DNA from: Takakia lepidozioides
Taxonomy: Eukaryota > Plantae > Bryophyta
Direction: 5' to 3'
Assembly: GCA_030704615.1 (NCBI GenBank)
Contig: CM060734.1
Location: 18,848,001 to 18,912,000 of the forward strand
DNA: 64,000 nucleotides
The position numbers were made by a program, and so were the translations under genes. Under the pieces are notes generated by a model that did not search any database, had not been told where the DNA came from, and saw nothing but the letters and a program-made list of their open reading frames with translations. Shown piece after piece: positions 8,000-62,155 of the stretch. Within the stretch, counting starts at the first letter, position 1, and each line of letters starts with the position of its first letter.

Positions 8000-8351
8000 T
8001 GTCAAGTTAAATAAGCACAGTGTGAAAACAACTAGAATAAAACTAGTTATTTGTATTTAACACTTGGATTTAGGTCAAGTGTTAAATCAGGTGTCAAGTT
8101 TAGTTTGACACCTGAACCGCCTTATCTTCAGAGAGCGGCAGTCCGCGCAGCTCATCTCTCTCGAGTTGAGCCTGCGCGACCGAGCTCCTGCATCGTTTAG
8201 GACTGAGTGTGCTTATGATGTATAGGTTGTTGTGGGGTGGAGTCCCCATAGCTTGGGGTGCCCCTGGCTCGACTTCTGTTTTAACGAGTGATAGCGATGG
8301 ATTTCATGTTGTTTCTGTGTGTGACAGTGTGTCTCTTAGCTTGTTCTATCA
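8000..8351 (+). repeat. Copy 1 terminal repeat A1
   Basis: Direct repeat of 19680-20035 (TGTCAAG...TTCTATCA); also matches 61872-62155. Confidence 0.92.
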
Positions 8352-12037: not shown

Positions 12038-15000
12038 GTGAGTGTCATCACGGAGTTACCCAGGGGTTCTGAGGGGAGTACGGCTACAGGCAGTAGCAGT
12101 GAGAGTGGGTTCACCAGACGAGGTGTTCGTTTCAGACCACCTTCACCTCCACCCTCAATTAGTGCAGAGTCAGACACAGACTCGGAGGCTTCATCAACAG
12201 GTGTGCAGTTTCATTCGCCATTGTTGTGGGACGACATGGAGGAGATGTATGGAGCTACCAAGGGGCCTCATAGGTACTCTGGAGCTGTGGGCACAATCGA
12301 GTTGGATGACGTTATCCAGGAGTTTGACAGCTGGTGTGATTGCAAGCAGATACGCAATCCACAGCTATTCACCCCATTCATGGCGTGGAAGGGACTGTTC
12401 CAGCATTTGGAAGGCCCGCCTATGGACGATTACCAACAAGTTCAGGTGAGGACATGAAGCAGAGATTGAGGAGTGGAGGATGTATTGGTCACCTGACTAC
12501 GTCTCCATTACTCGAGGCACGACGCGACCAGTAGTTGCATCAGTACCAATATCTCCCCTGCCAGCACTAGTAGTGGAACAAGTAGTGCTGATACTTCTGC
12601 AGGTGGTACCAGTTCAAAAAGGTGCTACTACTCCTCCTGCCACGACTGCAACACATTGCCTAGATTCAACCCGGTGGTGGAGTTCTTCCAGGAGTTTGCG
12701 GAGGAACTACCAAGGTGTACGGACAGAGAAGCTGCGAAGTTTGCAAGACTTCCAGCGCAAACCCAGTGAGAGCTTGCGAGAGGCCTACACTCGTATGAGG
12801 CGCTTGATAAGTGTGACCCAAGGGGTTACTGAAGCTCAGGCAATCCAGTTCTGGTATGAAATTTTGGACAAGGAGCTCAGGAGAAGGGTGTGGGATGCAA
12901 CCCTGTTACAAGCAGCCCAACCCACATTAGCAGATGTGTTTCTGCTGGCTGAGCGGATTGAGCTCAACATGGTGGAGGAGCCAGTTTTTACCATTGGGTT
13001 TGGCAAAGACATGCCTGCACGAGGCGCAGCTGCCAGCCCACAGGCACAAGGGACTGCCCAACAGCGTGGTCAGGGGGGCAAGGTTTCCCAACCCAAGTTC
13101 CATGGAGCTTACAGGGGACCTCAGGTGCAGAGGCCCGTGGCATCTTTTGCAGGCCCAACAACCAGGGGTGATATGTTGGACATGTGGAGGACCCATGTCA
13201 AGAGAGATTGCCCAGAGAGTGGCAAAAGGCCGGCACAAACACAGCCTGCACAGTTGCAGTGTGGGCATTGGGGGAAGTATGGGCATGGAGATGCCCAGTG
13301 TTATGACTTGCATCCTGAGTTGCGCCCAGGCCAGTTCCAAGGGAACAATGGTGGCCAGGGGCGAGGTGGACCAGCCCAGAGAGGACGAGGTGGTCGGGCA
13401 CGAGGTGCAGGCCAAGGGCAAGCTCAACATGGCCAAGGACGCGGAGGTTAGGGTGTTGACCAAGGCATGGCCAACCGGCTTCAGCAGCTAGAGCAGAGGC
13501 TCGCTGCCATGGCTACAGCTCAGGCGGTACCGGCTCCCAGGGATGGTCCACCTCCTGTTCCTGAGGGAGAAGATATGGGAGGCATGGGATTCATGTGCGG
13601 AGCAGCACTACCACTAGAGCAGGTGGAGTCTGCTGCAGCCGTGACTCGAGGAGCAGCACGAGTTCCTGAACCACGAGGTGCAGAGGTGGAGTTGGATCCA
13701 CAACGTGGGGAGGCAAGCCGTCAGGCGAGGCTACCTCAGTCATTCACCTTGGCAGAGACAGTGTCAACGCCATCCATGGCACCTAGTTCTCGCCCGACTG
13801 TTACCGAGGCGGAGGTTTCTATGCCATTGGGGAGAGCTACACGTGCAGCATGACACCTGCTGCCAAGGCTAGTGCAGCCGGTGTGTTGTTGGGGGCAGCC
13901 ACCTCTGTGTGTCAGCCCCACTGTTCTTGGCAACCATAATTGCGACGCCGGGGGTAAGACCAGCTGCAGTGTTCAGACTAGCAGCAACACTCTGTGAGAG
14001 TGGGGAGGTCACTTCATCTTCTGCGGAGTTACTGGAAGGTGTAGTGGCAGAGGGATCCTCGGATTTGAGGGTCAAGACTGCCACGGCTGTGCCATGGCAA
14101 GCTGCAGCTGCCAGGTTGACGGAGCTGCCAGCTAGGCTAGCCTTTGAGCGCGCCATGGTGACACCTGGAGTTGTCTTGTTAGACAACCAGGATGACATTT
14201 TCTCTTTGAGTGGACCGGCAGGCAAGAAGTACCGGCCACTGCGGGTCTTGTTGGACTCGGGAGCTCAGCCACTGATGTTGGGCAGAGCTGCTATTGCAGG
14301 TTTGGGCCTCATGGAAGCGGATATGGAGCCTTGTCCTTTCCAGATACAGACATGTCTGGGAGATCAGAGCAGGCTCAGGGCATGACACCGCATCAGTTGG
14401 CCATTAGACTGCAGCCGGATCATCCTATCGATGGCTCAGTAATGCGAGCCAATGTCATTGTGATAGACGCGGTCTCTTACGATGTCCTCGTTGGTAGGGC
14501 AGTGTTATACCCCATGGGCTTCACCCTAGACTTTTGGGAGGAGTCAGCATTCTACAGGCCTGGATGGCAGTCAGGGGATGGTCGTCGTGCACAGCTCCCT
14601 GTGACATTCATTGGGGGTATTGCGGCTGCCCAACGGGGCAAGATGCCAACACTAGCCGCCTTTACAGCTTTGGTTAGTTGGCCTGGAGAGTTGCTGGAAG
14701 GCAATGCCCATGCAGAGGATTTGCCACCTCCAGCAGAGCAGGATGACATGCATGGTATGGCGGAGTTGCCTGCCATGGTTGCTCAAACTCCATTGTGGGG
14801 TACGAGCAAGAATTTGCAGCAGGTTGCTGATCGACGGGTGCAACAAGCCTGGGTAGAGGCTTTTGTACCGTCAGGAGAGGAGGAGAGTGCGGGTATTGCA
14901 CCAGGACCACCTTAGTTGTCACCATTGGATACCACACCTATTGTGTGGCAGTATCCGGATAAAGACATTTGCCTTCTGGACTTGTTTGGCGGGATCAGCA

Positions 15001-16214
15001 CCGGATTGGCTGTTGTGCTATAGGCAGGTGTGCGGGTAAGGCGTTACCTGTATGTGGAGAGGGATGAGACTGCACGACGCGTCTCACTGCGCCATATTGC
15101 TTAGTTGGTACAGCAGTACCCTGCTTTGTTGCCAGTGTCTGCAGTTCGTGGATACCAACAAGCCTTGCCAGCAGACATTTCGTTGCTGGGGGCGCCGGAT
15201 TTGGAGCAGGTTGGCTCCATTGATCTGGTAGTGGCAGGTTGGCCCTGCCAAGGGCATTCATCAGCCGGGCATCGCAATGGATTGCGAGACTCAAGGACGG
15301 GTCTGTTTTGGGAGATGGTGCGGATTTTGCGCCACTTGCAGCTTCATCAAGCTGTATCACCAGCATACATCTTGGAGAATGTGCCACTGATGGGCGATTC
15401 TCGGGCCAGGGTGATGGCCAGTGTGCATCAAGTCCGGTCGTGGCTTGGGTCAGCAGTGTTGTTGGATGCAGCTGCAGTGGGATCACGGGCTCATCGTCCA
15501 CGGCTATGGTGGACTAACTTGATGCCACCCGCACTGCTCAAGCGTGCATTTGATGGGGTGCAGCGGCCAACACACCTCATAGTGGACAGCATTTTGGACA
15601 CAGGGAGGCAGTCTCAACGTGTGAGACACGATGACCGTTCGCCTTTGGCAGTGGTCAACAGGGTGGGTCAACCACGAGCAGTATTACCTACACTGCTCAG
15701 CTTCCCAGGATCCCATGCTTTTCGGGATGGTGGACCTGGCCCCTTGTGGGATGCTCAATTGCAACAGTTAGTGGAGCCTAATGCCGACGAGCGAGAGCGG
15801 GCTATGGGGTTTTCCACTGGGACCACGGCGGTGCCTTCTCTTTCTGAGGCATCACGTCGTCAGGTGTTGGGGCAAGCAATGGATCTCAATTGCTTGACCT
15901 GGATTATCAGCTTGGCTATGGCTGAGCAACGTAGAGTGCGGAGTGCACTTCCCTTGACGGTCTCTCTGCCTACCGAGACGGTACAGGCAGCGAGTGGGGG
16001 TGAGCCGATGAGGACCACGGGGTGTAGACATCCATGGCACACGTGGGAGGTGCTCGAGGTCCAGAGGGAGTTGGCAGCCAAGGCAGCTGTGATGGATGAG
16101 GTTGGGGATTCTTTTCGGGTTGAGGAGGTTCTCAATGATGAGATGATGGGGCAGGATGAGGCCTTGTCATTGACTGAGCAGGAAGGGAGTACTGCTCAAG
16201 AGGTTGCAGCATAG
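12038..16214 (+). pseudogene. Copy 1 Gag-protease-DNMT polyprotein (several frameshifts and premature TAGs)
   Basis: ORF pieces 12014-12457, 12480-13451, 13467-13853, 13909-14385, 14331-14915, 15105-16214. Contains LLDSGAQP (aspartic protease), DLFGGISTG, AGWPCQGHS, ILENV, HRPRLWWTN, ERAMGF and RRQVLGQAM. Colinear with copy 2. Confidence 0.88.
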
Positions 16215-19200
16215 CAACCACGGGACGCGACCTCTACCTCTAAGCCTACTGGACTTAAGGTTGCAGTTACGGAGGACAATTGGGAGCCTGACATTGGACC
16301 CATTGTCACCGGAGGAGAGAGACGACGTATGCGGCGGTTCCTGAGGGCTTACAGGAATTGCTTTGCCTTCACTTTGAAGGACTTGGGAGCACTGAAGGGT
16401 CAAGAGATTCGCATTGAATTGGCTACTGACACGCCAATCTTTCGGAGACCCTATAGATACAGTGACATGGAGAGGTCCTTGATTCAGATGAGAACTCAGG
16501 ATCCTTGGGAGGCAGGTTTGGTGGAGCTCTCTGGTGAAGAGTATGCTTCAGCCACAGTGATGCCAGCCAAGAAGGATGTCTATGGCAATTGGACGAGAGA
16601 CGTATGTGCGGTGATTACCGGCCTGTAAATCGTCAGACCAAGTCCGATAGGTATGCTCATGCCGACACCAGAGGAGATCTTTGATGCCATTGGGCATTCC
16701 AAGGTCTTTAGCACGTTGGATTTACGATCCGGATATCACCAGTTGGCGATCAGGAGGCGGATAAGCAAAAGACGGCATTCTGGGGGATCAATGAGCACGG
16801 GAAGGATTGCCTATACCAGTGGCGGTTCTTACCATTTGGGCTTAAAAACGCTCCTGCTGAGTTTCAAAGGGTCATGGACAGGATTCTAGCAGGGGTGGAG
16901 TTTGCTCGGTGCCACATAGATGACAGCATCATCTTTAGTGCTACGGTGGAGGAGCATGAGAGACACCTTCAGGGGGTATTTGAGCGCTTGAGGACGCACG
17001 GATTGAAGTTACATCCGGGAAAGTGCAAGTTTTTCCACAACCAGATTGAGTATCTGGGTCACATGATATATCCTGGAGGATTGGGGGTACAGCAGACTAA
17101 GGTAGAGTCCATTGCACAGGTTCCACGCCCCACGGATGTGAGCCGAGTTCGAGCTTTCATGGGGTTAGCAAACTATTACAGACGGTTTGTTAAGGGATTT
17201 AGTGCCATTGCAAATGCTCTAACCAAGCTGACCAAGGTGGACCAGGAGTGGCAGTGGGAAGATGAGAGAACAAGCTTTTCAAGAGCTCAAGGCGAGGTTG
17301 ACCTCGGCGCCCATCTTGAGACGACCTATTAGGGGGCTGCATACAGATTGGAGCATGCTGGGGCTTGGAGCGGTGCTCACACAGGTGGATGATGAGGGAA
17401 GAGAGTTCGTAGTGGCTTACGCTAGCCGCTCGAACAATGCTGCTGAGTCTAAGTATAGCTCATATGAGGGAGAATGCTTAGCTGCAGTGTGGGCCGTGGC
17501 ACACTTCAAGTGCTATCTATACGGCAATCTCTTCACCCTTGTCACGGATCACCAACCACTCAAGTGGTTGATGGAGTCAGACAAGCTTACGGGGAAGCTT
17601 GCACGGTGGGCACTCATCCTTCAAGAGTATGACTTTCAGGTGGTGCATCGACCGGGTTTGGTCAATCGCAATGCAGATGGGTTGAGTCGCAATCCATGCA
17701 CGAGCCAGCAGGATGACACTGGAGCTCGGTGGCATGGTGAGACGGACGAGGAGATGGTGCCCGGATGGCATGCATCTGCATTTCTGTGTATCTTGGCAGC
17801 GGAAGGCCAGGTTGGACCTGCAACAAGGATGACTGTAGATCAAGTGTCTGAGGACCTGAGGCCAGCAATGAGCAAGGTGGCGCCAAAGATATACATGAGG
17901 ATTCAGTTGTGTTGGACTACCTCCGCACTGGAGACACTGCAGCCACTGTGACTGCCAAGGAGAGGGATCGGATCCTACAACGAGCCAAGAGGTTCAAGTG
18001 GGAGGGAACACACCTACTCCGAGTGTGGAAGGATGGTCGAGTGAGGATTGTGCCTCACCCAACACAGCGGGCACGGTTAGTGCGGCATGCCCATGAGGAG
18101 TTGGGGCATTTTGGGGTGCGACGCACTCATAGTCTACTGCAGGGCAGTATTGGTGGCGTGGTATGCACACAGAGGTGCAACAATTTGTGGCTAGGTGCAT
18201 GGTGTGTGACAGGGTGCGTGCTTCATTCAACGCCCCTACTCCACAATTGCACCCTCTTCCGATCATGGGATTGGGCTACATGTGGAGTCTTGACTTTGCA
18301 GGGCCGTTGCCACTGACCATGCGCCACAACAAGTACGTATTGGTGATGGTGGAGCACTTCTCCAAGTGGATTGAATTGGTTCCATTGCCTGATAAGGCTA
18401 GTGAGGGAGCTGTGTATGCATTCTTGGATTGTGTGCTTAGCCAATTCGGTGCTCCAGCTGAGGTACTCATGGACCAAGGGAGAGAGTTCTTGGGGGAGTT
18501 TCAGGCTTTGTGTGACAAGGCCTTGATAGACCACCGCACCACTTCTCGGGATCATCCTGAGGCCGATGGCTTGGCAGAGAGAGTTGTTCAGACAGTAAAG
18601 AGGGGTTTGCGCAAGTATGGCTTGCAGAAGGGACACCTAGGAGATTGGGACCTTCAGTTACCCTGGTTAGCCATGGGCTACAGGTTCAGCAAGCAAGCAT
18701 CACTTGCCTCCTTCTCACCATACTTTCTTCTCTTTGGCCGAGAGCCGGATTTGCCTACATCCATTCGCAGAGAAGCTGCTACAGTTCTTAACCTTGACGA
18801 TCCGATGTGTGGGCACGTGCATATGAGCAGCGTGCAGAGTTGTTCAAGAAAGTCATGCCAATGGCTTTTGAGAACCTTGCCATTTCACAACACCGTGATA
18901 CGTTGAGGTATGCTACCATACGTGGTGGGGGCTATCGTCCTGGGGTTCGGAGATTCAACCCTGGTGACTACGTCTATCTACAGCAGACTGCTCCTACGAC
19001 CTTGGATGTGACTGCAGGATGTGTTATTTTGAGGGTTCGAGAGGTCTTGCCCTCAGGCGTCTTGGTCTTGGAGGGTCGGGATGGCATAACTTGGAAGGAC
19101 CATGTGCGTAATTGTCCGCCATGTCACCTTCCGAATGTCGATGGCAGGATAGACCCAAACTTGGCAGTGGTATCTGCAGGTTTGAGGTGCATGTTGTGTG

Positions 19201-19361
19201 GGTCTGCTAGAGGGGCAGCCACCATGCTGGTGTGTGATCGATGCTCTAGAGGTTGGCATATGGGATGCTTGACTCCACCTCTTGAGATGGTTCCGGATGG
19301 GGATTGGTTATGTCCACATTGCATTTGGATAGTGGGAGTGGATACAACCATGGAAGGCTAA
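16215..19361 (+). pseudogene. Copy 1 RT-RNase H-integrase-PHD (frameshifted)
   Basis: LDLRSGYHQ and HIDDS (degenerate YIDD) for RT; HTDWS...EGECLA...TDHQPL...NADGLSR for RNase H; HEELGH...CMVC, LDFAGP/DQGREF/GLAER for integrase HHCC and DDE; CMLC...CDRC...HMGC...CPHC for PHD. Confidence 0.9.
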
Positions 19362-19581: not shown

Positions 19582-19591
19582 AGGGGGGCGA
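19582..19591 (+). promoter_or_regulatory. Polypurine tract of copy 1
   Basis: AGGGGGGCGA immediately before repeat B1; identical at 61774-61783 in copy 3. Confidence 0.7.
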
Positions 19592-20121
19592 TTGTGGCAG
19601 ACTACTTTATTGTGCATATATGTGTGGTGTGGTTTGGACAACGATGTAGTTATGTAGCGATACGTATGCGCACGACAGCTGTCAAGTTAAATAAGCACAG
19701 TGTGAAAACAACTAGAATAAAGCTAGTTATTTGTATTTAACACTTGGATTTAGGTCAAGTGTTAAATCAGGTGTCAAGTTTAGTTTGACACCTGAACCGC
19801 ATTATCTTCACGAGAGCTGTAGTCGCGCAGCTCATCTCTCTCGAGTTGAGCCTGCGCGACCGAGCTCCTGCATCGTTTATGACTGAGTGTGCTTATGATG
19901 GGAGTATAGGTTGTTGTGGGGTGGAGTCCCCATAGCTTGGGGTGCCCCTGGCTCGACTTCTGTTTTAACGAGTGATAGCGATGGATTTCATGTTGTTTCT
20001 GGTGTGAACAGTGTGTCTCTTAGTTTGTTCTATCATTGTGGCAGACTACTTTATTGTGCATATATGTGTGGTGTGGTTTGGACAGCGATGTAGTTATGTA
20101 GCGATACGTATGCGCACGACA
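19592..20121 (+). repeat. Copy 1 3' terminal block B1 (19592-19677) - gc - A2 (19680-20035) - B2 (20036-20121)
   Basis: 86-bp B (TTGTGGCAGAC...GCGCACGACA) occurs twice, flanking A2. The B1/A2 junction is the perfect palindrome GACAGCTGTC. Confidence 0.92.
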
Positions 20122-20125
20122 CCCT

Positions 20126-20770
20126 AAATGGCGTTGACGACATTCACATCCAGAGTTGTTGAGAGGTCCTCAGAGTTATGTAAGTTTTTGTAAAGTCCAT
20201 AGAGTTTACAGTGAGGGTTCCTCACTTCAATTTGCTGAATGTCAATGCAGACATTCAGTTGTTCTGCATTGCTTTTGCCTCTTGCGAGAAATCTTGAGGC
20301 GTGATTAGCTATGTTATCAGAGATCCAAAGTGAATGTCGTTGACGACATTCACTTCTATGTCTGTGTCATTCACCAGTGACAATTTGAATTTACATGGAT
20401 TGGGAGCTAAGGGTATATTAATTGGTTCCTTGTTCGTAATTTTGTGAATGGCGTTGACGCCATTCACATCCAGTGTTATTATGAGGTCCTCAGTGTTATG
20501 TTCGTTATGAATGTCCATTGAGTTTTTGGGGAGGGTTCCTTACTCGAGTTTCTGATTTCCATCCAATGATTTTGCCTCTTTTGAGAAATCAATAGGCTTG
20601 ATTAGCAGTGTATTCACAAATCCAAAGTGAATGTCGTTGACGACACTCACTTCTATGTCTGTGTCATTCCAAAGCGAAAGTTTGCATTCACGTGGATTAG
20701 GGTGTATTCACAGTATCATTGAATGAAATGTTTTGAATGGCATTGACGACATTCACATCCAAAGCTGTCG
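20126..20770. repeat. Degenerate ~300-bp intronic tandem repeat (first unit begins ~7865 and is split by the Gypsy insertion)
   Basis: GATCCAAA(G/T)TGAATGTCGTTGACGACA(T/C)TCACTTC near 7868, 20322 and 20620; GAATGGC(G/A)TTGACG(A/C)CATTCACATCC-like motif near 20126, 20445 and 20735. Confidence 0.7.
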
Positions 20771-37570: not shown

Positions 37571-39054
37571 GGCAAAACTTCTTTAATGCTCTCAAGCTCC
37601 ATGAGATCCTGGGTTCAATGCTTGAAGGCCATGGCATTCTATGTTCAATGCTTCAACGCCATGAGATCTTGGGTTCAATCTCCAGCTCCATGATATCCTG
37701 GCTAAGTTCATTAATGAAAATATTAGAAGATGCCAATACTTGCCAGATAGCTGAATAGTAATTTCAACCCATAAAATGTTACCCATTTTCTTCTCCCAGT
37801 TTATTTAGAGTATTTTTTTTTTTTCGTGTTAGTGAAAATTAATAAAATCGTTGGATTTTAGTTCAAATATGTGAATACATTGCTATTTAATCTCCCGGAC
37901 TGATAAAATATTTTAAATCTAATTAAATTAATATATATATATATATAATTTAATTTAAAAAAAAAACCGGAACCGTGGTTTTTATCAGCAACTAACCGGT
38001 AACCAGAACCGCCCCCATGTTTAAAAGTTGGATCCGGAACCGGACCGGAACCGGCTCAATAAAAAAAAGCCGGGTAAAAGCAACCCAGGCGGCCTCGTGG
38101 CAAGGGGCTCACACCTGTGAAGCACCAAAAGGTGCCTTGCCAGGCTGGTGAGTAGCATTACGGAGTGTAAGCCACTCGTGCAAATACAAAGGATTTTTTT
38201 TGGAAATTCTTTACGAAATGCAGAATGCACCGGCCATTAGATTTTTTTTAATTTTTTGGCATTTCTTTACTCAAAGTAATGCGGGCATTCCAAGATGTTC
38301 GGGCCTTCCCCTCGGGCTACCGCCCTCAGCGTCAGGCCCTTAAATCAAGGAATGCCCTCCACTCAGGACATTACCTATACATAATCCGCACCATATATAT
38401 ACTATATAATAATAATAATATACATACTATATAGTTTGATCATCAACATGAAGCGAGACGTTTGTTGGCCCTGCCTTCTCAAGGCAGGACTACGCAAAGG
38501 GTTTCAGCGTTTCAGCTTGTTTGACACCGATACTTTCGATTACGCTTCCAATTCAATCGAGACAGTTGCCACCAGAATATTCTGTCCATATTTCTAATGA
38601 ATGACATTCGTTGGTCAAGAAGAAGATGGTTGATTGGTTGATTCACAAAATTTGCGCAGTCAGCATGCAAAGTGGAAGAGGAGTCAGCACAAATCTGATG
38701 CATGTGCCAACAAGTGGCATCGAGTCCTTGTCAAGTTATTTTACCACTAGTGTGAAACTAGCTAGGAAATAGCTAGCTTTTACATATTGACATTTGGGAT
38801 TGGCCCAAGTGTCAATCCAGGGGTCAAGGCAGATTTAGGCCCTGGAGTGGTTATCTTCACGGCAAGCGCGGGAGGCTCATCTTTCTCGAGTTGAGCCTCA
38901 CCGCGCCTAGCTATGGCGCCGTAGTGTGGATTCCCCATGGCGTGGGGTGCACTTGGCTTGACTTGTATTTGAGTGATGAGGTTATATATGCATGAGTTTA
39001 TGCTTCAGCTTTGTGAGCTCGCATGAGCTTGTGCTTGTATCTTCTTCTTTATCA

Positions 39055-39070
39055 CTCGAGAAAGATGAGC
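39055..39070 (+). promoter_or_regulatory. Self-complementary primer-binding site of copy 2
   Basis: (A)CTCGAGAAAGATGAGC at 39054-39070 is the exact reverse complement of GCTCATCTTTCTCGAGT at 38875-38891. Confidence 0.8.
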
Positions 39071-40579: not shown

Positions 40580-41560
40580 GTGTGGGGCTGTGGCTGTGGC
40601 AAGCTGTGACGGGCTGTGACGGGCAACGGGCTGTGACGGCTGTGGCAAGCTGTTTGTGATGGGCTGTGACAGGCTGTGCCCTGTGCCCTGTGGGGCTGTG
40701 ACGGGCTGTGTCAGGCTGTGACAGGCTGTGCCCAGTGGCCTTTTGGGCTGTGACGGCTGTGCGGGGCTGTGACAGGCTGTGCCCTGAGGCCTGTGGGGCT
40801 GTGACGGGCTGTGACAGGCTGTGTGGCCTTTGGGGCTGTGATGGGCTGTGAGGGGGCTGTGACAGGCCGTGCCTGAGGCTGTGAGGGCTGTGATGGGCTG
40901 TGACAGGCTGTGCGCCCTGTGGGCTGTGACGGAGGCTGTGTGCCTGAGGGGGGCTGTGACGGGCTGTGAGGGGCTGTGCTGTGGCCTGTGACCTGTGAGG
41001 GGCTGTGGAGGAGGCTGTGACCTGTGCTGTGACAGGCCGTGCCCATGGCCTTTGGGGCTGTTGTGAGGGGCTGTGAACTGCCTGTTTGGGGCTGTGACCT
41101 GAGGCCTTTGAGGCCTGTGAAGGTGGGGGCTGTGACGGGCTGTGAGGGCTGTTGTTTGGGGCTGTGACGGGCTGTGAGGGCTGTGACAGGTGGCCTCTGT
41201 GACGGCTGTGACAGGCAGAAATGCCCATGGCCTTTGGGGCTGTGAGGGCTGTGAGGGGCTGTGAGTGAGGCCCTGTGACGGGCCTGTGTGGGGTGTGTGA
41301 GGGCTGTGACTGAGGCCTTTGGGGCTGTGACGGGCTGTGACTGTGACAGGCCGTGCCTGAAAAGGCTGTGACGGGCTGTGAGGGCTGTGACTGTGGCCTT
41401 TGGGGCTGTGACGGGCTGTGGTGTGTGAGGCCTTTGTGAGGGGCTGTGAGGGCTGTGACAAGGCCTTTGAGGCTGTGACGGCTGTGAGGGGCTGTGACAG
41501 GCTGTGCCCAGTGGCCTGTGGTGTGACGGCTGTGACCAGTGAGCTGTGTGGGCCTGTGCT
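40580..41560 (+). repeat. GGCTGTGA-based ~1 kb low-complexity tandem array in the copy 2 leader
   Basis: Dozens of (G)GGCTGTGA(C/G) units with strong G/T strand bias. Confidence 0.9.
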
Positions 41561-41912: not shown

Positions 41913-44900
41913 TTGAGTGTCAACACGGAGGTGCCACTAGTTGCTGGGGACAGTGCCGGTTCGAGCACTAGCGATACTAGTGGGTACACGAGACGAGGTG
42001 TGCGGTTTAGGCCACCTTCACCTCCTGTGTCTTCCACGGAAGGTTCTGATTCGGATTGTGAATCAGGAGGGCTCATACAGGCGGTGCAAGTTGTTTCTTT
42101 GCCATTATTGTGGGACACAATGGAGGAGATGTATGGAACTACCAAGGGGCCACGAAGGTACTCTGGGGCGGTGGGCACCATTGAGTTGGATGATTTTATC
42201 CAAGAGTTTGATAGTTGGTGTGATTTGCAGCAAATGCGCAATCCACAACTATTTACGCCGTTCATGGCATGGAAAGGGCTGTTTCAGCACCTTGAGGGGC
42301 CGCCTATGGATGATTACCATGAGTTCAGGCGGGGGCATGAGGTTGAGATCGAGGAGTGGAGGATGTACTGGTCACCCGACTATGTCTCCATCACTAGGGG
42401 CACTAGAGCCACGAGGGCAGTGGCTACACCTGCCGCTGCACCGGCAGCTTCAGCAAGCAGCAGTGGGACTGGTGGTACAGTAGCTACGACGTCCACCCAA
42501 GCCACTACCGCACCAGCACTAGCACCCGTGCCTGCCTTCAACCCTGTTGTGGAGTTCTTCGAAGAGTTGAGAGGGAACTACCAAGGGGTGAGGACAGAGA
42601 AGTTGCGGAGCTTGCAAGAGTTCCAACGGAAGCCGACCGAGAGCTTGAGGGAGGCTTTCACTCGCATGAGGCGCTTGATAAATGTAACCCAAGGGGTTAC
42701 GGAAGCTCAGGCAGTCCAATTCTGGTATGGGATATTGGACAAGGAGCTGAGGAGAAGGGTGCGGGATGCAACTCTCCTACAAGCGGCCCAACCCACCTTA
42801 GCAAATGTGTTTTTGCTGGCAGAGCGGATAGAGCTCAACATGGTGGAGGAACGAGTGGTCATGGTGGGATTTGCTAAGGAGACACCACGGGGTAGTGGTG
42901 CTCCTAGCCAACCACTACCTCAACGTGCTCAAGGCAACAAGGGGGCTCAGGTGAAGCTCAGGGAAGGGCAGAGAGGACCTCAAATGCAGGGGTCTCTCCC
43001 TTCATTTGCTGGCCAACAACGGGCGGATGTGGTGTGCTGGACATGTGGAGGACCCCATGTCAAGAAGGATTGCCCAGAGGGAGGCAAAGGGTCGGCACAT
43101 GCACAGCCTGCACAGTTGCAGTGTGGGCATTGTGGCAAGCACGGGCATGGAGAGGCCCAGTGTTATAGTTTGCATCCTGAGTTGCGCCCAGGCCAGTTCC
43201 AAGGGAACAATGGTGGCCGGGGGCGAGGTGGAGCAGCCCAGAGAGGACGAGGTGGCCAGCCACGAGGTGCAGGCCAAGGGCAAGCTCAACGTGGCCAAGG
43301 ACGCGGAGGTCAGGGTGTTGACCAAGGCATGGCCAACCGGCTTCAGCAGCTAGAGCAGAGGCTCGCTGCCATGGCTACAGCTCAGGTGGTACCGGCTCTA
43401 AGGCCGGATGGTCCACCTCCTGCTCCTGAGGGAGGAGATATGGGAGGCATGGGATTCATGTGTGGAGCAGCACTACCACTAGTGCAGGTGGAGTCTGCTG
43501 CAGCCGTGACTCGAGGAGCAGCACGAGTTCCTGAGCCACGAGGTGCAGAGGTGGAGTTGGATCCACAGCGTGGGGAGGCAAGCCGTCAGGCTAGGCTTCC
43601 TCAGTCATTCACATTGGCGGAGACAGTGTCGACGCCATCCATGGCACCTAGTTCTCGCCCGACTATTACCGAGGCGGAGGTTACTATGCCATTGGGGAGA
43701 GCTACACGGGCAGCACCACTACCTAGTGTTGCCAAGGCTACGGCAGCTAGTGTGCTGTTAGGAGCGGCCACATCTGTGTGCCAGGCTCCATTGTTCTCGG
43801 CTACCATGATTGCGACGCCGGGATAAGACCAGCTGAGGTGTTCAGGCTGGCAGCTACACTCTGTGAGAGTGGGGAGGTTACTTCATCTTCTGCGGAGATA
43901 GTGGGAGGTGTAGTGCCGGAGGGATCCTCGGATTTGAGGGTCAAGACTGCCACGGCGGCGCCATGGCAAGCTGCAGCTGCCAGGTTGATGGAGCTGCCAG
44001 CTAGGCCAGCCATTGAGCGCGCCATGGTGACACCTGGAGTTGTCATGTTAGACAACCAGGATGGCATTTTCTGTTTGAGTGGACCGGCAGGCAAGAGGTA
44101 CCGGCCACTGCGAGTCTTGTTGGACTCGGGAGCTCAGCCACTGATGCTGGGCAGAGCTGCTATTGCAGGCTTGGGCCTCACGGAGGCGGATATGGAGCCT
44201 TGTCCTTTCCAGATACAGACGTCTCTGGGAGGATCGGAGCAGGCTCGGGGCATGACACGGCATGAGTTGGCTATCAGACTACGGCTGGATCATCCTACAG
44301 ATGGCTCAGTGATGCGAGCCAAGGCCATTGTGACAGACGCAGTCTCATACGATGTCCTGGTTGGTGGGGCAGTGTTGTACCCCATGGGCTTCACCCTGGA
44401 TTTTTGGGAGGAGTCAGCTTCCTATAGGCCTGCATGGCAGTCAGGGGAGGGCCGGCGTGTGCAGCTCCCTGTGACGTTCATAGGAGGAGTTGCGGTTGCC
44501 CAGCGAGGCAAGATGCCGACACTAGCAGCATTCACAGCGGCAGTGAGTTGGCCTAGAGAGTTGCTTGAGGGCAATGCTCATTCAGAGGATGTACCACCTC
44601 CGGGAGAGCAGGATGACATGTATGGTATGGCGGAGTTGCCTACCATGGTTGCTCATACTCCATTGTGGGGCACGAGCAAGGATTTGCAGCGGGATGCTGA
44701 TCGACGGGTGCAACAAGCCTGGGTGGAGGCTTTTGTACCGTCAAGAGAGGAGGAGAGTGTGGGGATTGCACCAGGACCACCTCAATTGTCTCCATTGGAC
44801 ACCACACCTATTGTGTGGCAGTCTCCGGATGAAGGCATTTGTCTTCTGGACTTGTTTGGCGGGATCAGCACCGGATTGGCTGCTTTGTTACAGGCAGGTG

Positions 44901-46084
44901 TACGAGTTCGGCGTTACCTGTATGTGGAGAGGGATGAGACTGCACGACGCGTTTCACTTCGCCATGTTGCTCAGTTGGTGCAGCGGTACCCTGAGTTGTT
45001 GTCGGTGTCTGCAATTCGTGGATATCAGCAGGCCTTGCCAGCAGACATTTCGTTGCTGGGGGCGCAGGATTTGGAGCGGGTTGGCTCCATTGATCTGGTA
45101 GTGGCAGGTTGGCCCTGCCAAGGGCATTCATCAGCCGGGCATGGCAATGGATTGCGAGACTCGAGGTCGGGTCTGTTTTGGGAGATGGTGCGGGTTTTGC
45201 GCCACTTGCAGCTTCATCAAGCTGTATCTCCAGCATACATCTTGGAGAATGTGCCACTGATGGGCGATTCTCGGGCCAGGGTGATGGCCAGTGTGCATCA
45301 AGTCCGGTCGTGGCTTGGGTCAGCAGTGTTGCTAGATGCAGCTACAGTGGGGTCACGGGCTCATCGTCCACGGCTATGGTGGACTAACATGATGCCACCC
45401 GCACTGCTCAAGCGTGCATTTGATGGGGTGCAGCGGCCAGCACATCTCACAGTGGATAACATTCTGGACACAGGGAGGCAGTCTCAACGTGTGAGACACG
45501 ATGACCGTTCGCCTTTGGCAGTGGTCAACAAGGTGGGTCAACCACGAGCAGCATTACCTACACTGCTCAGCTTCCCAGGATCGCATGCTTTCCGGGATAG
45601 TGGACCTGGCCTCCTGTGGGATGCTCAGTTGCAGCAGTTAGTGGAGCCTAATGCTGACGAGCGTGAGCGGGCAATGGGTTTTACCACTGGTACCACGGCG
45701 GTGTCGTCTCTTTCTGAGGCATCACGTCGTCAAGTGTTGGGGCAAGCAATGGATCTCAATTGCTTGACCTGGATTATCAGCTTGGCTCTAGCTGAGCAAC
45801 GCAGAGTGCGGAATACACTTCCCTCAATGGTCTCTCTGCCTACCGAGACGGTACAGGCAGTGAGTGGGGGCGAGCATATGAGGACCACGGGGTGCATGCA
45901 TCCATGGCACACGTGGGAGGTGCTCGAGGTTCAGAGGGAGTTGGCAGCCAAGGCGGCTGTGATGGATGAGGTTGGGGATTCTTCTCGAGTTGAGGAGGTC
46001 CTCAAGGATGAGATGATGGGGCAGGATGATGCCTTGTCATTGACTGAGCAGGTAGGGAGTACTGCTCAAGAGGTTGCAGCATAG
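41913..46084 (+). CDS. Copy 2 Gag-protease-Dnmt3-like C5 DNA methyltransferase polyprotein (single 1-nt lesion at ~43822)
   Basis: ORFs 41913-43826 and 43778-46084. Copy 1 reads straight through the break (TPG-VRP), so this was one ancestral ORF. Knuckles CWTCGGPHVKKDC and CGHCGKHGHGEAQC, RGG-rich tract, LLDSGAQP. DNMT motifs I, IV (PC), VI (ENV), VIII, IX and X intact at ~44837-45790. Confidence 0.88.
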
Positions 46085-47992
46085 CAACCACGGGACGCGT
46101 CCTCTACCTCTAAGCCCACTGGACTTAAGGTTGTAGTTACGGAGGACAATTGGGAGCCTGACATTGGACCCATTGTCACCGGAGGAGAGAGACGACGTAT
46201 ACGGCGGTTCCTGAGGGCTTACAGGATTTGCTTTGCCTTCAGTTTGAAGGACTTGGGAGCACTGAAGGGTCAAGAGATCCGTATTGAGTTGGCCACTGAC
46301 ACGCCAATCTTTCGGAGACCCTATAGATACAGTGACATGGAGAGGTCTTTGATTCAGATGAGGACTCAAGATCTCTGGGAGGCAGGTTTGGTGGAGCTCT
46401 CTGGTGGAGAGTATGCTTCATCCACAGTGATGCCAGCCAAGAAGGATGTCTATGGCAATTGGACGGAGAGACGTATGTGCGGTGATTACCGGCCTGTAAA
46501 TCGTCAGACCAAGTCCGATAAGTATGCCATGCCAACACTAGAGGAGATCTTTGATGCCATCGGGCATGCTAAGGCCTTTAGCACTTTGGATTTACGATCC
46601 GGATATCACCAGTTGCCAATCAAGGAGGCGGACAAGCAGAAGACGGCATTCTGGGGGATCAATGAGCACGGCAAGGATTGCCTATATCAGTGGCGGTTCT
46701 TACCATTTGGGCTTAAGAATGCTCCTGCAGAGTTTCAGAGAGTCATGGATAGGATTCTAGCAGGGGTGGACTTTGCTTGGTGCTACATAGATGACATCAT
46801 CATCTTTAGTGTTACGATGGAGGAGCATGAGAGACACCTTCAGGTGGTATTGGAGCGCTTGAGAGCGCACGGATTGAAGTTGCATCCGGGGAAGTGCAAG
46901 TTTTTCCACAACCAGATTGAGTATCTGGGTCACATGATATATCCTGGAGGATTGGGGGTACAGCAGACTAAGGTAGAGGCCATTGCACAAATTCCACGCC
47001 CCACGGATGTGAGCCGAGTTCGAGCTTTCATGGGGTTGGCAAACTATTATAGACGGTTTGTCAAGGGATTTAGTACCATTGCAAAGGCTCTAACCAAGCT
47101 GACCAAGGTGGACCAGGAGTGGCAGTGGGAAGATGAGCAGGAACGAGCTTTTCAAGAGCTCAAGGCGAGGTTGACCTCGGCGCCTATCTTGAGACGACCT
47201 ATCAGGGGGCGTCCCTTTCAGCTGCATACGGATTGGAGCATGCTGGGGCTTGGAGCGGTGCTCACACAGGTGGATGATGAGGGAAGAGAGTTCGTAGTGG
47301 CTTACGCTAGCCGCTCGAACAACGCTGCAGAGGCTAAGTACAGCTCATATGAGGGAGAGTGCTTAGCTGCAGTGTGGGCCGTGGCACACTTCAGGTGCTA
47401 TCTATACGGCAATCTTTTCACCCTTGTCACGGATCACCAGCCACTCAAGTGGTTGATGGAGTCAGACAAGCTTACGGGGAAGCTTGCACGGTGGGCACTT
47501 ATACTCCAGGAGTATGACTTTCAGGTTGTGCATCGACCGGGTTTGGTCAATCGGGATGCGGATGGATTGAGTCGCAATCCATGCATGAGCCAGCAGGATG
47601 ACACTGGAGCTCGGTGGCATGGTGAGACGGACGAGGAGATGGTGCCGGGATGGCACGCATCTGCATTTTTGTGTATCTTGGCATCGGGAGGTCAGATTGG
47701 ACCTACAACAGGGATGACTGTAGACGGAGTGTCTGAGGACCCTGAGGCTAGTGATGAGCTAGGTGGTGCCAGAGATATACATGAGGATTCGGCTGTGTTG
47801 GACTACCTCCGCACGGGAGACACGGCAGCCATTGTGACTGCCAGGGAGAGGGATCGGATCCTGCAACGAGCCAAGAGGTTCAAGTGGGAGGGGATACACC
47901 TACTTCGAGTGTGGGAGGATGGTCGGGTGAGGATTGTGCCTCACCCCACACAGCGTGCACGGTTAGTGCGGCATGCCCATGAGGAGTTGGGC
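46085..47992 (+). CDS. Copy 2 RT-RNase H plus integrase N-terminus, in frame after the TAG; truncated at HEELG
   Basis: Open frame from 46085, including ORF 46244-48019: [43 protein letters not shown]. It runs into LTR A2 at 47993. Confidence 0.88.
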
Positions 47993-48616
47993 TGTCAAGT
48001 TATTTTACCACTAGTGTGAAACTAGCTAGGAAATAGCTAGCTTTTACATATTGACATTTGGGATTGGCCCAAGTGTCAATCCAGGGGTCAAGGCAGATTT
48101 AGGCCCTGGAGTGGTTATCTTCACGGCAAGCGCGGGAGGCTCATCTTTCTCGAGTTGAGCCTCACCGCGCCTAGCTATGGCGCCGTAGTGTGGATTCCCC
48201 ATGGCGTGGGGTGCACTTGGCTTGACTTGTATTTGAGTGATGAGGTTATATATGCCTGAGTTTATGCTTCAGCTTTGTGAGCTCGCATGAGCTTGTGCTT
48301 GTATTCTTCCTCTTTATCATTGTGTGGACTAGTGACTGCCATAGTGGGCAGCGTAGTGGCAGCCTAGTGACTGACTAGTTGTAGCCTAGTGGTTGGACTA
48401 GTGGTTGGACTAGTGGTAGACTAGTGGTATACTAGTGTGTGGTGTGCACATGTGTTGTGTGGTTTTGGACAGCGATGTAGTTGTGTAGCGATATGTATGC
48501 GCACGACATCCTCTTCCCCAACTCCCTACAAGGTTCTCCTTGCTTTCGTGGGAATTGGGTTTGCGATCTCTCCAGACGTGCTACGGTTGAGGATTGGGAG
48601 CTGTGAGAGGAGAAAG

Positions 48617-51150: not shown

Positions 51151-52372
51151 GAAAGCTCTAAAGAAAATGGGAAAACCAGGTCCACTTCAGAAATTGCCTC
51201 TGCCACCATGTATACGACAGTCCCCGAAGGAAAATCACTCTAGTTGGAGATACTGATAATATAACTCTTTGCTTATAGCAAAGCTCATTTAGAAGTTGGA
51301 ATCCTCCACACTTATTGTACATACATATACCTCGACCAAAGATGCATCTGAAACATCTGGATAGGAATGAAATGGAGAGGTATTGTTTGTGCTACAGTTT
51401 AAGGGTAATATGTCATGAAAGTCAGGTACTTGATGAACTTGTTTCGAGTAGTGCAGAGAGAGGGAGGGTTGGGGGGAGGAGATGTGTTCATTTGACTTCC
51501 TTTGCCAGATTTACTAGCCAGTATGAAGAGAGGGGAAGATGACCCTGATATCACTAGTACATCCACACCCTTTTTAAAAATAAATCACAACTTTTCATGT
51601 CAACCATTTGTTGGCCTTGCCTTCCTATTGAGGTTCGCTGCAACCTGGAACTCTTTATGGAAAGCATCACTTCTTTTGGATTTGACTTGTATGATCAGAC
51701 ATTAGGAGGGGTGTAAGTGAGAGGACACACATGCATAGATTTGGGTGTGCGTCTTGAAGGTGAGGTGGGAGCATTCAGATCCCGATTTTGGATACTAATG
51801 TTGTACTGACAGTGTTATCGGTGAAGGGTGTGTCATCAAGGTAGGTTTATTGACAGTATAGTGCCTCCAAGTAGAAATTGGGAGGATCTTTCCTTAGTTG
51901 GCATCGGTTCTATTGGTGACACTATGTTGCGGGTTTGGTATTGGTCTGGCAGGAATGGAAGACAGTTTTGCATGGAAGGCCACCTTAAATTGTCAAGCAC
52001 CATTTCCTGATATAGATGTATGTTAATTAAAGTTGTTAATTTGTTGGTGTGTTAAAAGCCACATTGTTACATCTGTGTCCTGTGACAAATATGTAGGGAG
52101 TTCTAAGAGGTTTTCATCGGGCTACCAATCTAATATCGGATGAGGTCCACCATGAAGGTACTCAACTCAAATCCTCCTAACCCTCTCTTATCCACCTTCT
52201 TTTTCATATGGTGCTTACCTTTGGACCCATTTATAGACCTACCTAACTCGATAGGTGTAATGTTAAAAATGCTTTGTTGGTATTAGCTCATATGCCATAT
52301 GGACAGTAGAGACAGCAATAAGCAATATAACCCTATTGTAGCCCCTCTGTAAATTTTTCATAATTGTTTTGT

Positions 52373-60817: not shown

Positions 60818-62155
60818 AGAAGGGACACCTAGGAGATTGGGACCTTCAGTTACCTTGGTTAGCCATGGGCTACAGGTTCAGCAAGCAAGCATCACTTGCC
60901 TCCTTCTCACCATACTTTCTTCTCTTTGGCCGAGAGCCGGATTTGCCTACATCCATTCGCAGAGAAGCTGCTACAGTTCTTAACCTTGACGATCCGGACG
61001 TGTGGGCACGTGCATGTGAGCAACGTGCAGAGTTGTTCAAGAGAGTCATGCCCATGGCTTTCGAGAACCTTGCCATTGCACAACACCGTGATACGTTGAG
61101 GTATGCTACCATACGTGGTGGGGGCTATCGTCCTGGGGTTCGGAGATTCAACCCTGGTGACTATGTCTATCTGCAGCAGACTGCTCCTACGACCCTGGAT
61201 GTGACTGCAAGACGTGTTATTTTGAGGGTTCGAGAGGTCTTGCCCTCAGGCGTCTTGGTCTTGGAGGGTCGGGATGGCATAACTTGGAAGGACCATGTGC
61301 GTAATTGTGCGCCATGTCACCTTCCGAATGTCGATGGCAGGATTGACCCAAACCTGGCAGTGGTATTTGCAGGTTTGAGGTGCATGTTGTGTGGGTCTGC
61401 TAAAGGGGCAGCCACCATGCTGGTGTGTGATCGATGCTCTAGAGGTTGGCATATGGGATGCTTGACTCCACCTCTTGAGATGGTTCCGGATGGGGATTGG
61501 TTATGTCCACATTGCATTGGATAATGGGAGTGGATACAACCATGGAAGGCTAACAAGAAATGCAAGGCCAAGCTACTATGAGACCTTGAACACACGAGAT
61601 CTTGGCTCAAGTTCACAGATTGCAAGATGGCGACTAACGATGGGGCTACTCTTGTACCCGGCCTCTTGGTTGATAGAGTTTGAGCACAATAGGGACAGTG
61701 ATAGAGGACTTAGTACGGCTGTGGCTATTACATCTTGTAGCTATCTGGAGTTAGAGGGACCTATCCACCAGCTAGGGGGGCGATTGTGGCAGACTACTTT
61801 ATTGTGCATATATGTGTGGTGTGGTTTGGACAGCGATATAGTTGTGTAGCGATACGTATGCGCACGACAACTGTCAAGTTAAATAAGCACAGTGTGAAAC
61901 TAGCTAGAATAAAGCTAGTTATTTGTATTTAACACTTGGATTTAGGTCAAGTGTTAAATCAGGTGTCAAGTTTAGTTTGACACCTGACCCGTCTTATCTT
62001 CACGAGAGCGGCAGTCGAGCAGCTCATATCTCTCGAGTTGAGCCTGCGCGACCGAGCTCCTTCATGCGTTTAGAAGCTGAGTGTGCTTATGATGGTATGA
62101 TAGATTGTTGTGGGGTGGAGTCCCCATAGCTTGGGGTGCCCCTGGCTCGACTTCT
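60818..62155 (+). mobile_element. Ty3/Gypsy copy 3 fragment (copy 1 subfamily): integrase C-terminus + PHD, PPT, B (61784-61869), ac spacer, truncated A (61872-62155)
   Basis: ORF 60865-61524 is nearly identical to the copy 1 integrase/PHD; same PPT-B-spacer-A order. Confidence 0.9.

Follow-up and report, generated by a model that had tools for sequence, protein, structure and literature searches.

What does a cytosine methyltransferase do inside a retrotransposon, and does the element that carries it reveal how it integrates? This question is raised by the window, a stretch of 64,000 nucleotides of Takakia lepidozioides (assembly GCA_030704615.1, contig CM060734.1, positions 18,848,001 to 18,912,000 of the forward strand), where an earlier note, made from the sequence alone, had described an intact Dnmt3-like domain within a Ty3/Gypsy polyprotein. 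Two copies of the element and a fragment of a third are present in the window. Their features are listed in Table 1.

Table 1. Features of the element copies, in positions of the window
Copy	Feature	Position	Strand	Remarks
1	Repeat A1	8000..8351	+	target duplication CCCT at 7996-7999 on its left, self-priming PBS on its right
1	Gag-PR-DNMT, TAG CAA CCA (16212-16220), RT-RH-INT-PHD	12236..19330	+	decayed by frameshifts and stops
1	DNMT domain	14967..15920	+	two stop codons
1	Polypurine tract (PPT)	19582..19591	+	immediately 5' of B1
1	Repeat B1	19592..19677	+	
1	Palindromic B1|A2 junction CGACA-GC-TGTCA	19673..19684	+	putative integrase attachment site
1	Repeat A2	19680..20035	+	96% identity to A1
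1	Repeat B2	20036..20121	+	target duplication CCCT at 20122-20125 on its right
2	Left target-site duplication TCCT	38725..38728	+	matches 48509-48512
2	Repeat A1 (TG...CA)	38729..39054	+	99% identity to 47993-48319; putative promoter and self-primer inside
2	Self-primer	38875..38890	+	16 nt complementary to primer-binding site; fold z = -6.4
2	Primer-binding site (PBS)	39055..39070	+	directly 3' of A1
2	GGCTGTGAC-type tandem array, 5' leader	40592..41506	+	
2	Gag, zinc-knuckle-like motifs	42120..43826	+	frame broken near 43819
2	Aspartic protease	44033..44440	+	DSG at 44123-44131; Pfam matches in relatives
2	DNMT3-like C5 cytosine methyltransferase domain	44837..45790	+	Cys 45116-45118, Glu 45245-45247, Arg 45365-45367 and 45371-45373
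2	In-frame TAG with CAA CCA	46082..46090	+	CAR-YYA readthrough context at DNMT/RT boundary
2	RT, RNase H, start of integrase zinc finger	46085..47992	+	ends abruptly at 47992
2	Repeat A2	47993..48319	+	abuts integrase gene at B|A junction position
2	Repeat B2	48320..48508	+	terminal CGACA
2	Right target-site duplication TCCT	48509..48512	+	
3	Fragment: integrase C-terminus, PHD finger, PPT, B1, junction, truncated A2	60818..62155	+	

The methyltransferase domain and its host element

Translation of the copy 2 domain yields 318 residues with zero stops and every motif quoted in the earlier note, among them I, IV (with its Cys), VI (ENV), VIII (RxR), IX and X. The domain lies in the open reading frame 43751-46084, downstream of and in frame with the aspartic-protease motif LLDSGAQ, and matches PF00145 with 48.3 bits (E 1.2e-12) at a Pfam cut-off of 22. 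The claim of a DNMT3-like domain within a Ty3/Gypsy polyprotein therefore stands. The closest solved structures are DNMT3A (E 8e-12) and DNMT3B (1e-8); matches to DRM-type enzymes (1e-5 to 3e-4) and M.HhaI (4e-4) are weaker. The order of motifs I to X follows that of DNMT3A, without permutation, and the family profile scores DNMT3A at 93 bits against 39-52 for DRM-type enzymes, 38 for HhaI and 32 for DNMT2, in agreement with the earlier assignment to the Dnmt3 rather than the DRM motif order.

Phage enzymes come close. The best of 24 reaches 76 bits with the family profile, and in a single-query search a phage enzyme scores 55 bits against 48 for DNMT3A. An ESM Atlas search returned only phage-rich PF00145 clusters, the search of viral contigs gave distant enzymes (25-50% identity across short stretches), and the eight phage-record matches listed show 24-27% full-length identity. 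The methyltransferase tree was a quick search without bootstrap and without a host DNMT3 sequence. The domain may derive from a host DNMT3 or from a DNMT3-like phage enzyme. The predicted structure has the DNMT3A fold (TM 0.64), with pLDDT below 50 in the target-recognition region (residues 199-259) and the catalytic loop, so that the sequence context of methylation is not predictable.

C94, E137 and R177 are kept in all 124 distant relatives that cover the domain (out of 150 representatives) and R179 in 122 of them, at a median column identity of 0.25. Between copy 1 and copy 2 the dN/dS of the domain is 0.24 (0.15-0.43), with 0.19 for RT, and among three open relatives it is 0.10-0.12. Two of the checks proposed in the earlier note, the PF00145 profile and dN/dS across copies, came out in its favour, the latter indicating purifying selection. 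Close pairs of the moss-type family show 0.5-0.6 for DNMT and RT alike, which is as expected for decayed copies and gives no support in itself. Could the domain nevertheless be an inactive or neutral passenger? Copies 1 and 2 are both broken, motif IV reads EC instead of PC in 68 of the 124 relatives, and the Klebsormidium enzyme produced no methylation in yeast, a result reported as inconclusive by the authors' own control (PMC5890265). Nonetheless, the invariant catalytic residues, the dN/dS of 0.10-0.24 and the 625 clusters matched by the family profile (E up to 1e-30) make a passenger extremely improbable. Judged from its sequence, the domain is a DNMT3-like member of the C5 cytosine methyltransferases, under purifying selection and spread through the element family, and the enzyme is likely active.

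The word intact holds for the copy 2 domain and not for its element: given the upstream frameshift near 43819 and the loss of most of the integrase, PHD, PPT and B1, only the former is intact. Likewise, copy 1 does contain the same domain, as had been stated, but with stop codons inside. The missing integrase part of copy 2 has no match left of the chromovirus in the window. A nested insertion at 47993-60817 was rejected, since 47993-48508 is copy 2's own A2-B2 and the target duplications match. A programmed frameshift at the Gag/protease boundary was also rejected because relatives have one frame there; Gag-PR-DNMT is a single ORF in P0124, P0125 and L037. Pfam does not call the protease in the window, and calls Asp_protease_2/gag-asp_proteas at the corresponding place in relatives.

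The order RT-RNaseH-integrase places the element in Ty3/Gypsy. It has the Gag-PR-RT-RH-INT order, a DDE integrase, PBS, PPT, TG...CA ends and a target duplication. Two complete terminal direct LTRs were not found, the element ends being A ... B-A-B or A ... B. No chromodomain was found after the integrase, where a PHD finger takes its place, and no tyrosine recombinase was found; rve and an integrase zinc finger are present.

A conserved stop codon ahead of the reverse transcriptase

Copies 1 and 2 share an identical TAG CAA CCA between DNMT and RT. Over these nine positions in copy 2, two runs of a single sample, comprising 760 and 770 contigs, list no variant of at least 2%, and in the same contigs the neighbouring positions 46078, 46079 and 46092 do vary. 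Among 80 metagenome loci, 55 cover the end of DNMT and the start of RT, and 38 of these stay in one frame. All 38 contain a stop, 18 of them exactly one, and in those 18 it always takes the form TAR-CAR. Overall, a stop followed by CAR is found at the homologous place in 46 of the 55 loci, and CAR context and frame are kept across lineages that are about 50% identical. CAR-YYA is described as the readthrough signal of TMV (PMC2754532). The conserved in-frame TAG is thus likely read through at a low rate to yield RT, RNase H and the PHD-bearing integrase. Since DNMT lies upstream of this presumably leaky stop, it would be made at the level of Gag.

Alternatively, the pol frame might be translated through re-initiation or splicing. 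The moss-type family has an in-frame ATG two codons past the stop, the sequence CAA CCC ATG follows it in 13 of the 18 clean-stop loci (which departs from CAR-YYA and permits re-initiation), and in L042 residue 14 is a Met. In the window and in L037, however, the first Met appears only at residues 85 and 117, so that none precedes the RT domain, and frame and CAR context are conserved between such distant lineages. We consider this alternative improbable and retain readthrough. The stimulatory structure 3' of the stop is weak (fold z = -2.0), and stop-free DNMT-RT forms exist among the relatives (P0155, P0236 and P0415, the last with the order DNMT-RT-RH).

Split repeats, proposed joining of the ends and possible role of the enzyme

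The repeats are laid out as A1-B1-A2-B2, the PBS adjoining the end of A and the PPT the start of B. Exact 4-bp target duplications surround A...B in six of eight elements with definable ends and have one mismatch in the other two; L072, L078 and L079, whose termini could not be located, were excluded. Priming by tRNA was rejected in favour of self-priming, as the PBS is complementary to the element's own A1 sequence; in L072 and L078, both decayed, there is a short self-primer match or none. On re-examination the earlier observations of a readthrough signal, self-priming, a PHD finger and split repeats were all confirmed.

Two junctions are informative. The B|A junction is a palindrome, GACA-GC-TGTC, conserved in the window as well as in L037, L042 and L067, the last a distant relative. 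The A2|B2 junction joins precisely the PBS-edge end of A and the PPT-edge start of B. One locus (L036/L038) retains 9 nt of PBS sequence in this join, and in L034 and L028 truncated RT or integrase sequence runs into the start of B and the PPT is absent. These A|B junctions look like joined cDNA ends.

We propose the following route. Transcription would start inside A, and self-priming in the manner of Tf1 would give the product B-A-interior-B-A, so that the true LTR would be B+A. The right end (A) would then be joined to the left end (B), either by host end-joining or by an end-to-end jump of RT. Integrase would cleave the CA-GC-TG junction beside the PBS and insert the product as A-interior-B-A-B, or as A-interior-B from a one-LTR circle, though B1xB2 recombination or a collapsed assembly can also leave copies with A...B only. 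In a symmetric two-LTR circle the two junctions are equal, and A-B-A-interior-B copies are expected as well; the 22 loci that have an A repeat at the 5' end, a redundant set (the 80 loci collapse to 61 groups), include none. Linear DNA is described as the accepted integration precursor (PMC11054761).

The single permutation would be accounted for if the split repeats were copied as in PAT/Ngaro (B2 passed on in the transcript, the internal junction serving as splint) or on a linear precursor, with no end-joined cDNA being cut; the A1-B1-A2-B2 layout is indeed shared with tyrosine-recombinase elements (PMC4157794). Such copying is unlikely in view of the canonical PBS and PPT at the edges of B+A, the 4-bp duplications and DDE integrase, and the joins in which B follows a PBS remnant or a truncated interior, which read as products of cDNA end-joining. 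Taken alone, the proposal that joined cDNA integrates by way of an internal site and so gives the split repeats is probable.

The methyltransferase would be synthesised in equimolar amounts to Gag, and the protease would probably release it. It would methylate the cDNA or circle, and new copies would arrive pre-marked like host heterochromatin. The observed/expected CpG ratio is 0.49-0.54 in the DNMT elements, against 0.41 in the chromovirus and 0.34 in the LINE of the window; depletion is no stronger than in these two, and base composition therefore shows no trace of self-methylation. Neither the C-to-T spectrum (CG 8.6%, CHG 8.2%, CHH 4.9%) nor the CpG/CHG depletion singles out the element's enzyme.

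Rather than modifying cDNA in the particle, the enzyme might act chiefly in trans, with host chromatin or the site of insertion as its nuclear substrate and the PHD finger guiding integrase to chromatin with unmethylated H3K4. The stop places DNMT on the abundant Gag side, far above the need of one cDNA, and the PHD finger resembles those of CHD4, KDM5 PHD1, PHF21A and DPF3, which are readers of unmodified H3K4. Nonetheless, DNMT and PHD lie on separate products, and other lineages (94 of 150 representatives) fuse DNMT between RNase H and integrase and thereby tie it to the cDNA complex. Together with the ordinary, plant-like methylome reported for K. nitens (PMC5890265), this leaves action in trans as a minor possibility.

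More speculative is a self-encoded integration switch, in which the Gag-level enzyme methylates the CpG of the attachment site CGACA in end-joined cDNA and so licenses or blocks cutting at the LTR palindrome. Here 5mC might stand in for the T that the opposite half-site, TGACA, has at this position, or it might shield the chromosomal B1|A2 junction. The B ends, compared from the window to L037, L042 and L067, read CGACA in 17 of 25 cases, TGACA in six and CAACA in two, and by their sequence the last two are one-step deamination products of the first. Furthermore, every integrated B-A-B copy retains an uncut B|A junction, and the deletion in copy 2 ends at this junction. However, base recognition by integrase explains the conservation equally well, and deamination indicates methylated integrated copies, which host enzymes can bring about. 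We therefore regard the switch as doubtful indeed. On balance we favour, with modest confidence, a Ty3/Gypsy element of a streptophyte lineage with a likely active DNMT3-like enzyme ahead of a probably leaky TAG. The enzyme likely methylates the element's own cDNA, which is predicted to undergo end-to-end joining and then cleavage by integrase at the internal B|A palindrome.

Relatives and comparison with known systems

Relatives with host names come from liverworts and Sphagnum, and the Marchantia members are annotated as ordinary genes (for instance Mp4g09160 and Mp8g17980). Physcomitrium and Selaginella are absent by name among the 120 RT matches listed. P0173 represents Gag-PR-DNMT; P0362 represents RT-RH-INT-PHD and is placed beside K. 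nitens proteins. The two may be parts of one element, their contigs being equal in length. Of the latter, P0368 and P0400 are RT-RH-INT relatives (43-45% identity) with no DNMT between RNase H and integrase. In the second RT tree, a quick search without bootstrap, the RT-RH relatives named as K. nitens group in an adjacent clade with an unresolved base.

Self-encoded cytosine methyltransferases are then no longer an oddity of algae but form a large family present in land plants, the model liverwort Marchantia included, where methylation mutants and sequencing of extrachromosomal DNA make the long-standing question of their purpose testable. The junction anatomy offers a concrete and testable source for split repeats in an integrase-encoding element. 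If true, integration of joined cDNA would be a route long considered a dead end for such elements. Bryophyte DNMT3 gene surveys and LTR annotation tools are both liable to miscount these elements.

The earlier note had seen an undescribed retroelement system. This is too strong: KnitGypsy-Dnmt3 of Klebsormidium nitens (de Mendoza et al. 2018) already pairs Dnmt3 and Gypsy domains with DIRS-like split repeats (PMC5890265, Fig. 4 legend), and methylation of cDNA was proposed for it as well. From that description, it shares with the Takakia element a non-permuted, intronless Dnmt3-like domain under purifying selection, Gypsy domains and the A1-B1-A2-B2 layout. The DNMT position may also be the same, but the authors describe one ORF with RT and RNase H, whereas the Takakia element has a conserved in-frame stop between them; a further difference is that the host range here takes in liverworts and Sphagnum. 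In the passages of PMC5890265 consulted, nothing is said of self-priming, a PHD finger, readthrough, target duplications or the route of integration. Our literature search found no report of DNMT-carrying Gypsy elements in land plants, nor the bryophyte extension, the DNMT/RT stop or the junction-derived integration route in print.

PAT/Ngaro elements have the same split direct repeats and a junction-based integration route (PMC4157794), and SymbioDIRS-Dnmt3 likewise carries a methyltransferase (PMC5890265). Unlike these, the Takakia element has an aspartic protease, a DDE integrase with zinc finger and PHD, PBS, PPT and 4-bp target duplications. Tf1/Sushi and Tcn1 are described as having a PBS that pairs with the 5' part of their own RNA, and Tj1/Tosmo as having an in-frame stop that controls pol (bioRxiv 2022.12.06.519325, PMC6317226). 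In these sources, however, such elements have a chromodomain, ordinary LTRs and no DNMT, and the Tj1/Tosmo stop lies at the Gag/protease boundary rather than after protease and DNMT. Animal DNMT3A/B and plant DNMT3 resemble the element enzyme in motif order, catalytic C/E/R/R and fold, but identity is about 22% and the element enzyme lacks PWWP, ADD and DUF3444 (PMC6453930). Its target-recognition region is unrelated to theirs, and DNMT3-like phage enzymes score nearly as well as DNMT3A/B against it. The route proposed here recalls the two-LTR circle-junction model (Panganiban and Temin 1984), likewise based on a palindromic junction in joined cDNA and rejected for retroviruses, whose precursor is linear (reviewed in PMC11054761). 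It differs in that the cut site lies inside the LTR and the end-to-end junction persists in the integrated copy as A2|B2.

New in the Takakia element and its relatives are Gag-protease-DNMT ending at a conserved TAG-CAR-YYA-type stop before RT-RNaseH-integrase-PHD, and the combination of self-priming, 4-bp target duplications around A1...B2, a palindromic B|A junction and joined-end-like A|B junctions.

The methyltransferase domain and its family

In copy 2 of the Ty3/Gypsy element, translation and the surrounding ORF confirm the domain that the earlier note had placed in frame behind the protease: 318 residues are free of stops and contain every motif it quoted. Its Dnmt3 likeness holds as well. 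The Pfam profile PF00145 scores 48.3 bits, and a sequence search among solved structures ranks DNMT3A first (E 8e-12), followed by DNMT3B, DRM-type enzymes and M.HhaI. The predicted fold (AlphaFold; mean pLDDT 69, pTM 0.77, with residues 94-102 and 199-259 below pLDDT 50) likewise has DNMT3A as its first match (E 1e-14, TM 0.64). "Intact" applies to the domain only: a frameshift near 43819 interrupts the copy 2 element, and the copy 1 counterpart, present as claimed, holds two stops. A single Gag-protease-DNMT frame occurs in Marchantia proteins and at metagenome locus L037.

Between copies 1 and 2, dN/dS is 0.24 (0.15-0.43) for the DNMT, 0.19 for RT and 0.20 for Gag; comparisons among the open relatives L037, L042 and L029 put the DNMT at 0.10-0.12. 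Values are higher, 0.53-0.58, for three pairs of closely related moss-type copies that have decayed. A family profile search retrieved 625 clusters (50% identity level) at E <= 1e-30. The domain is covered in 124 of the best 150, and three residues are invariant there (catalytic Cys, Glu of motif VI, first Arg of motif VIII; 124/124 each), compared with a median identity of 0.25 per column. Judged by its residues, the enzyme is conserved as a catalyst.

Named relatives (59-77% identity) come from Marchantia polymorpha, M. paleacea, Calypogeia fissa, Riccia sorocarpa and Sphagnum, and the trees put the window's element with those of liverworts and mosses, which suggests a bryophyte-grade land plant as its host. 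By RT, the relatives extend to Klebsormidium nitens and to Closterium, where one protein opens with the final DNMT motif. The Marchantia gene models Mp_4g09160, Mp_8g17980, Mp_6g11220 and Mp_2g26090 (P0124, P0125, P0129, P0136), annotated as hypothetical genes, are Gag-PR-DNMT or DNMT-RT products of the family.

The 150 best representatives comprise 94 with the order RNase H-DNMT-integrase, 10 with protease-DNMT-RT, as in the window, and 46 fragments. These layouts separate in the RT tree (support 99/96). In the DNMT tree they fall together, with seven phage enzymes outside the group (SH-aLRT 98), a pattern that fits a single capture and a later move within the polyprotein. As to the donor, the ranking flips: the family profile scores DNMT3A at 93 bits against 76 for the best of 24 phage enzymes, a single-sequence query at 48 against 55. 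Locus L067 (2-4732 and 5883-12341) has the order RT-RH-DNMT-INT-PHD, with EC as DNMT motif IV; the two ends of its contig overlap, which points to a single, very long frame. In protein P0182 (1417 residues), RT occurs together with two methyltransferases, a related C5 enzyme and a Dam adenine enzyme; it is similar to the dual-methylase elements described in bioRxiv 2026.05.21.726589 (accessible text).

The stop between methyltransferase and reverse transcriptase

Both copies carry TAG CAA CCA in frame in the DNMT/RT linker. In one sample (760 and 770 contigs) no variant of at least 2% was seen at these nine bases, whereas three nearby positions vary. The survey covered 80 metagenome loci, which collapse to 61 groups at 98%; 55 of the loci span the linker. 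One frame is kept in 38 and shifted in 17; the 38 contain a single stop (18) or several (20), never none. Single stops are TAR-CAR in 18/18, with full CAR-YYA in 5 and CAA CCC followed by ATG in 13. At L037, TAG CAG TTA is the sole separator of open frames of 1369 and 1047 residues. TMV uses CAR-YYA as its signal for readthrough, which runs at about 6-10% in stable plants (PMC2754532, accessible text). Readthrough is likely given this context, the conserved TAR-CAR stop and the late first Met downstream in the window (residue 85) and at L037 (residue 117). At L042 the first Met is residue 14, and pol expression by re-initiation may occur in some families. Readthrough would supply the enzyme at Gag abundance and keep RT and integrase scarce.

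End repeats and junctions

Exact 4-bp duplications surround A...B in copies 1 and 2 and at L023, L036, L044 and L062, and duplications with one mismatch at L034 and L039 (three loci without definable ends were left out), so repeat B is part of the element. The edge of the polypurine tract (PPT) marks the start of B, and the edge of the primer-binding site (PBS) the end of A, so that reverse transcription should yield B-A-interior-B-A; the A2/B2 seam joins exactly the two predicted cDNA ends. The 12-16 bases directly 3' of A1 are complementary to a stretch within A (leader fold z = -6.4), as is known from self-priming Tf1 (bioRxiv 2022.12.06.519325, accessible text). Copies 1 and 2 have unrelated leaders and coding regions 88% identical.

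Features of the window (copy 1 and copy 2 refer to the DNMT-bearing element)
Feature	Coordinates	Strand	Remarks
Copy 1 repeat A1	8000-8351		
Copy 1 repeat B1	19592-19677		preceded by PPT; GC follows before A2
Copy 1 repeat A2	19680-20035		
Copy 1 repeat B2	20036-20121		
Diverged tandem array around copy 1	7828-7987 and 20127-20761		~300-bp units, both sides
Tandem repeats in copy 2 5' leader	40592-41506		GGCTGTGAC-type units over ~900 bp; none in copy 1
Copy 2 ORF with DNMT domain	43751-46084		domain downstream of protease motif LLDSGAQ
Copy 2 DNMT domain	44837-45790		
Universal stress protein (Usp) gene pieces	48602-49890	+	begin ~100 bp downstream of copy 2 B2 end; one piece with weak PF00582 match, under cut-off
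Chromovirus-type Ty3/Gypsy element	55048-60817	-	Gag, PR, RT, RH, INT, chromodomain; LTRs 508 bp, 98.6% identical; frame split by in-frame stops (57120, about 56226); adjoins copy 3 fragment
LINE-type RT fragments	24417-26371	-	
SWIM frame (Mutator-like)	570-1517	-	weak
DUF4216 frame (CACTA-like)	53256-53930	-	

The exact A2/B2 edges, nine PBS bases retained at the L036/L038 seam, and truncated RT or integrase sequence joined without PPT to the B start at L034 and L028 indicate that the seams carry marks of joined cDNA ends. The B/A junction forms the palindrome GACA-GC-TGTC, which persists even in L067; the element termini correspond to its two halves, which suggests that integrase cuts there. 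Each of the 25 B ends has CGACA or a sequence derived from it by deamination; L067 shares the PPT and CGACA end of the window's element. The copy 2 deletion endpoint falls at the B/A junction position; further copies from this organism run on through integrase and B1.

B-A-B ends occur at 11 loci. PPT-B-only ends (about nine groups) would be compatible with one-LTR circles, but also fit recombination or assembly collapse. A simple symmetric circle is disfavoured, as none of 22 loci with a 5' A shows an A-B-A start; this bias could stem from an end-to-end jump by RT or from integrase binding close to the ends. Integration of joined cDNA would differ from the linear DNA accepted as precursor for retroviral integrases (PMC11054761, accessible text).

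Role of the enzyme and known systems

The DNMT is predicted to be packaged with Gag and to methylate the cDNA or circle; cDNA methylation was already proposed for algal elements (PMC5890265, accessible text). Alternatively it might act in trans, control the attachment site through the CpG in it, or be without function. Base composition in the window is uninformative on this role (CpG o/e 0.49-0.54 in the elements against 0.41 in the chromovirus and 0.34 in a LINE). The PHD finger resembles those of CHD4, KDM5, PHF21A and DPF3, which read unmodified H3K4.

The literature searched, in its accessible portions (including PMC6317226, PMC6453930, PMC10952607, bioRxiv 363937 and bioRxiv 2021.11.30.470311; most subscription papers and Repbase outside scope), held no land-plant report of the family, and neither readthrough nor an integration route for it. 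Later papers name only "streptophytes", citing the KnitGypsy-Dnmt3 work (bioRxiv 2026.05.21.726589, PMC12344493, accessible text).

An "undescribed system" was too broad a claim, since the enzyme within a Gypsy element is already known: in the accessible text of PMC5890265, KnitGypsy-Dnmt3 of Klebsormidium nitens combines a methyltransferase, Gypsy domains and DIRS-like repeats. A yeast test of its DNMT yielded no methylation, an outcome its authors call inconclusive. Their rebuttal in the peer-review file locates the DNMT within the RT ORF. There the two share one ORF, whereas an in-frame stop separates them in the window's element. What appears new beside KnitGypsy-Dnmt3, and worth specialist attention, is the bryophyte spread, the DNMT before a putatively leaky stop, and junctions whose structure points to a route that would integrate end-joined cDNA via an internal site.
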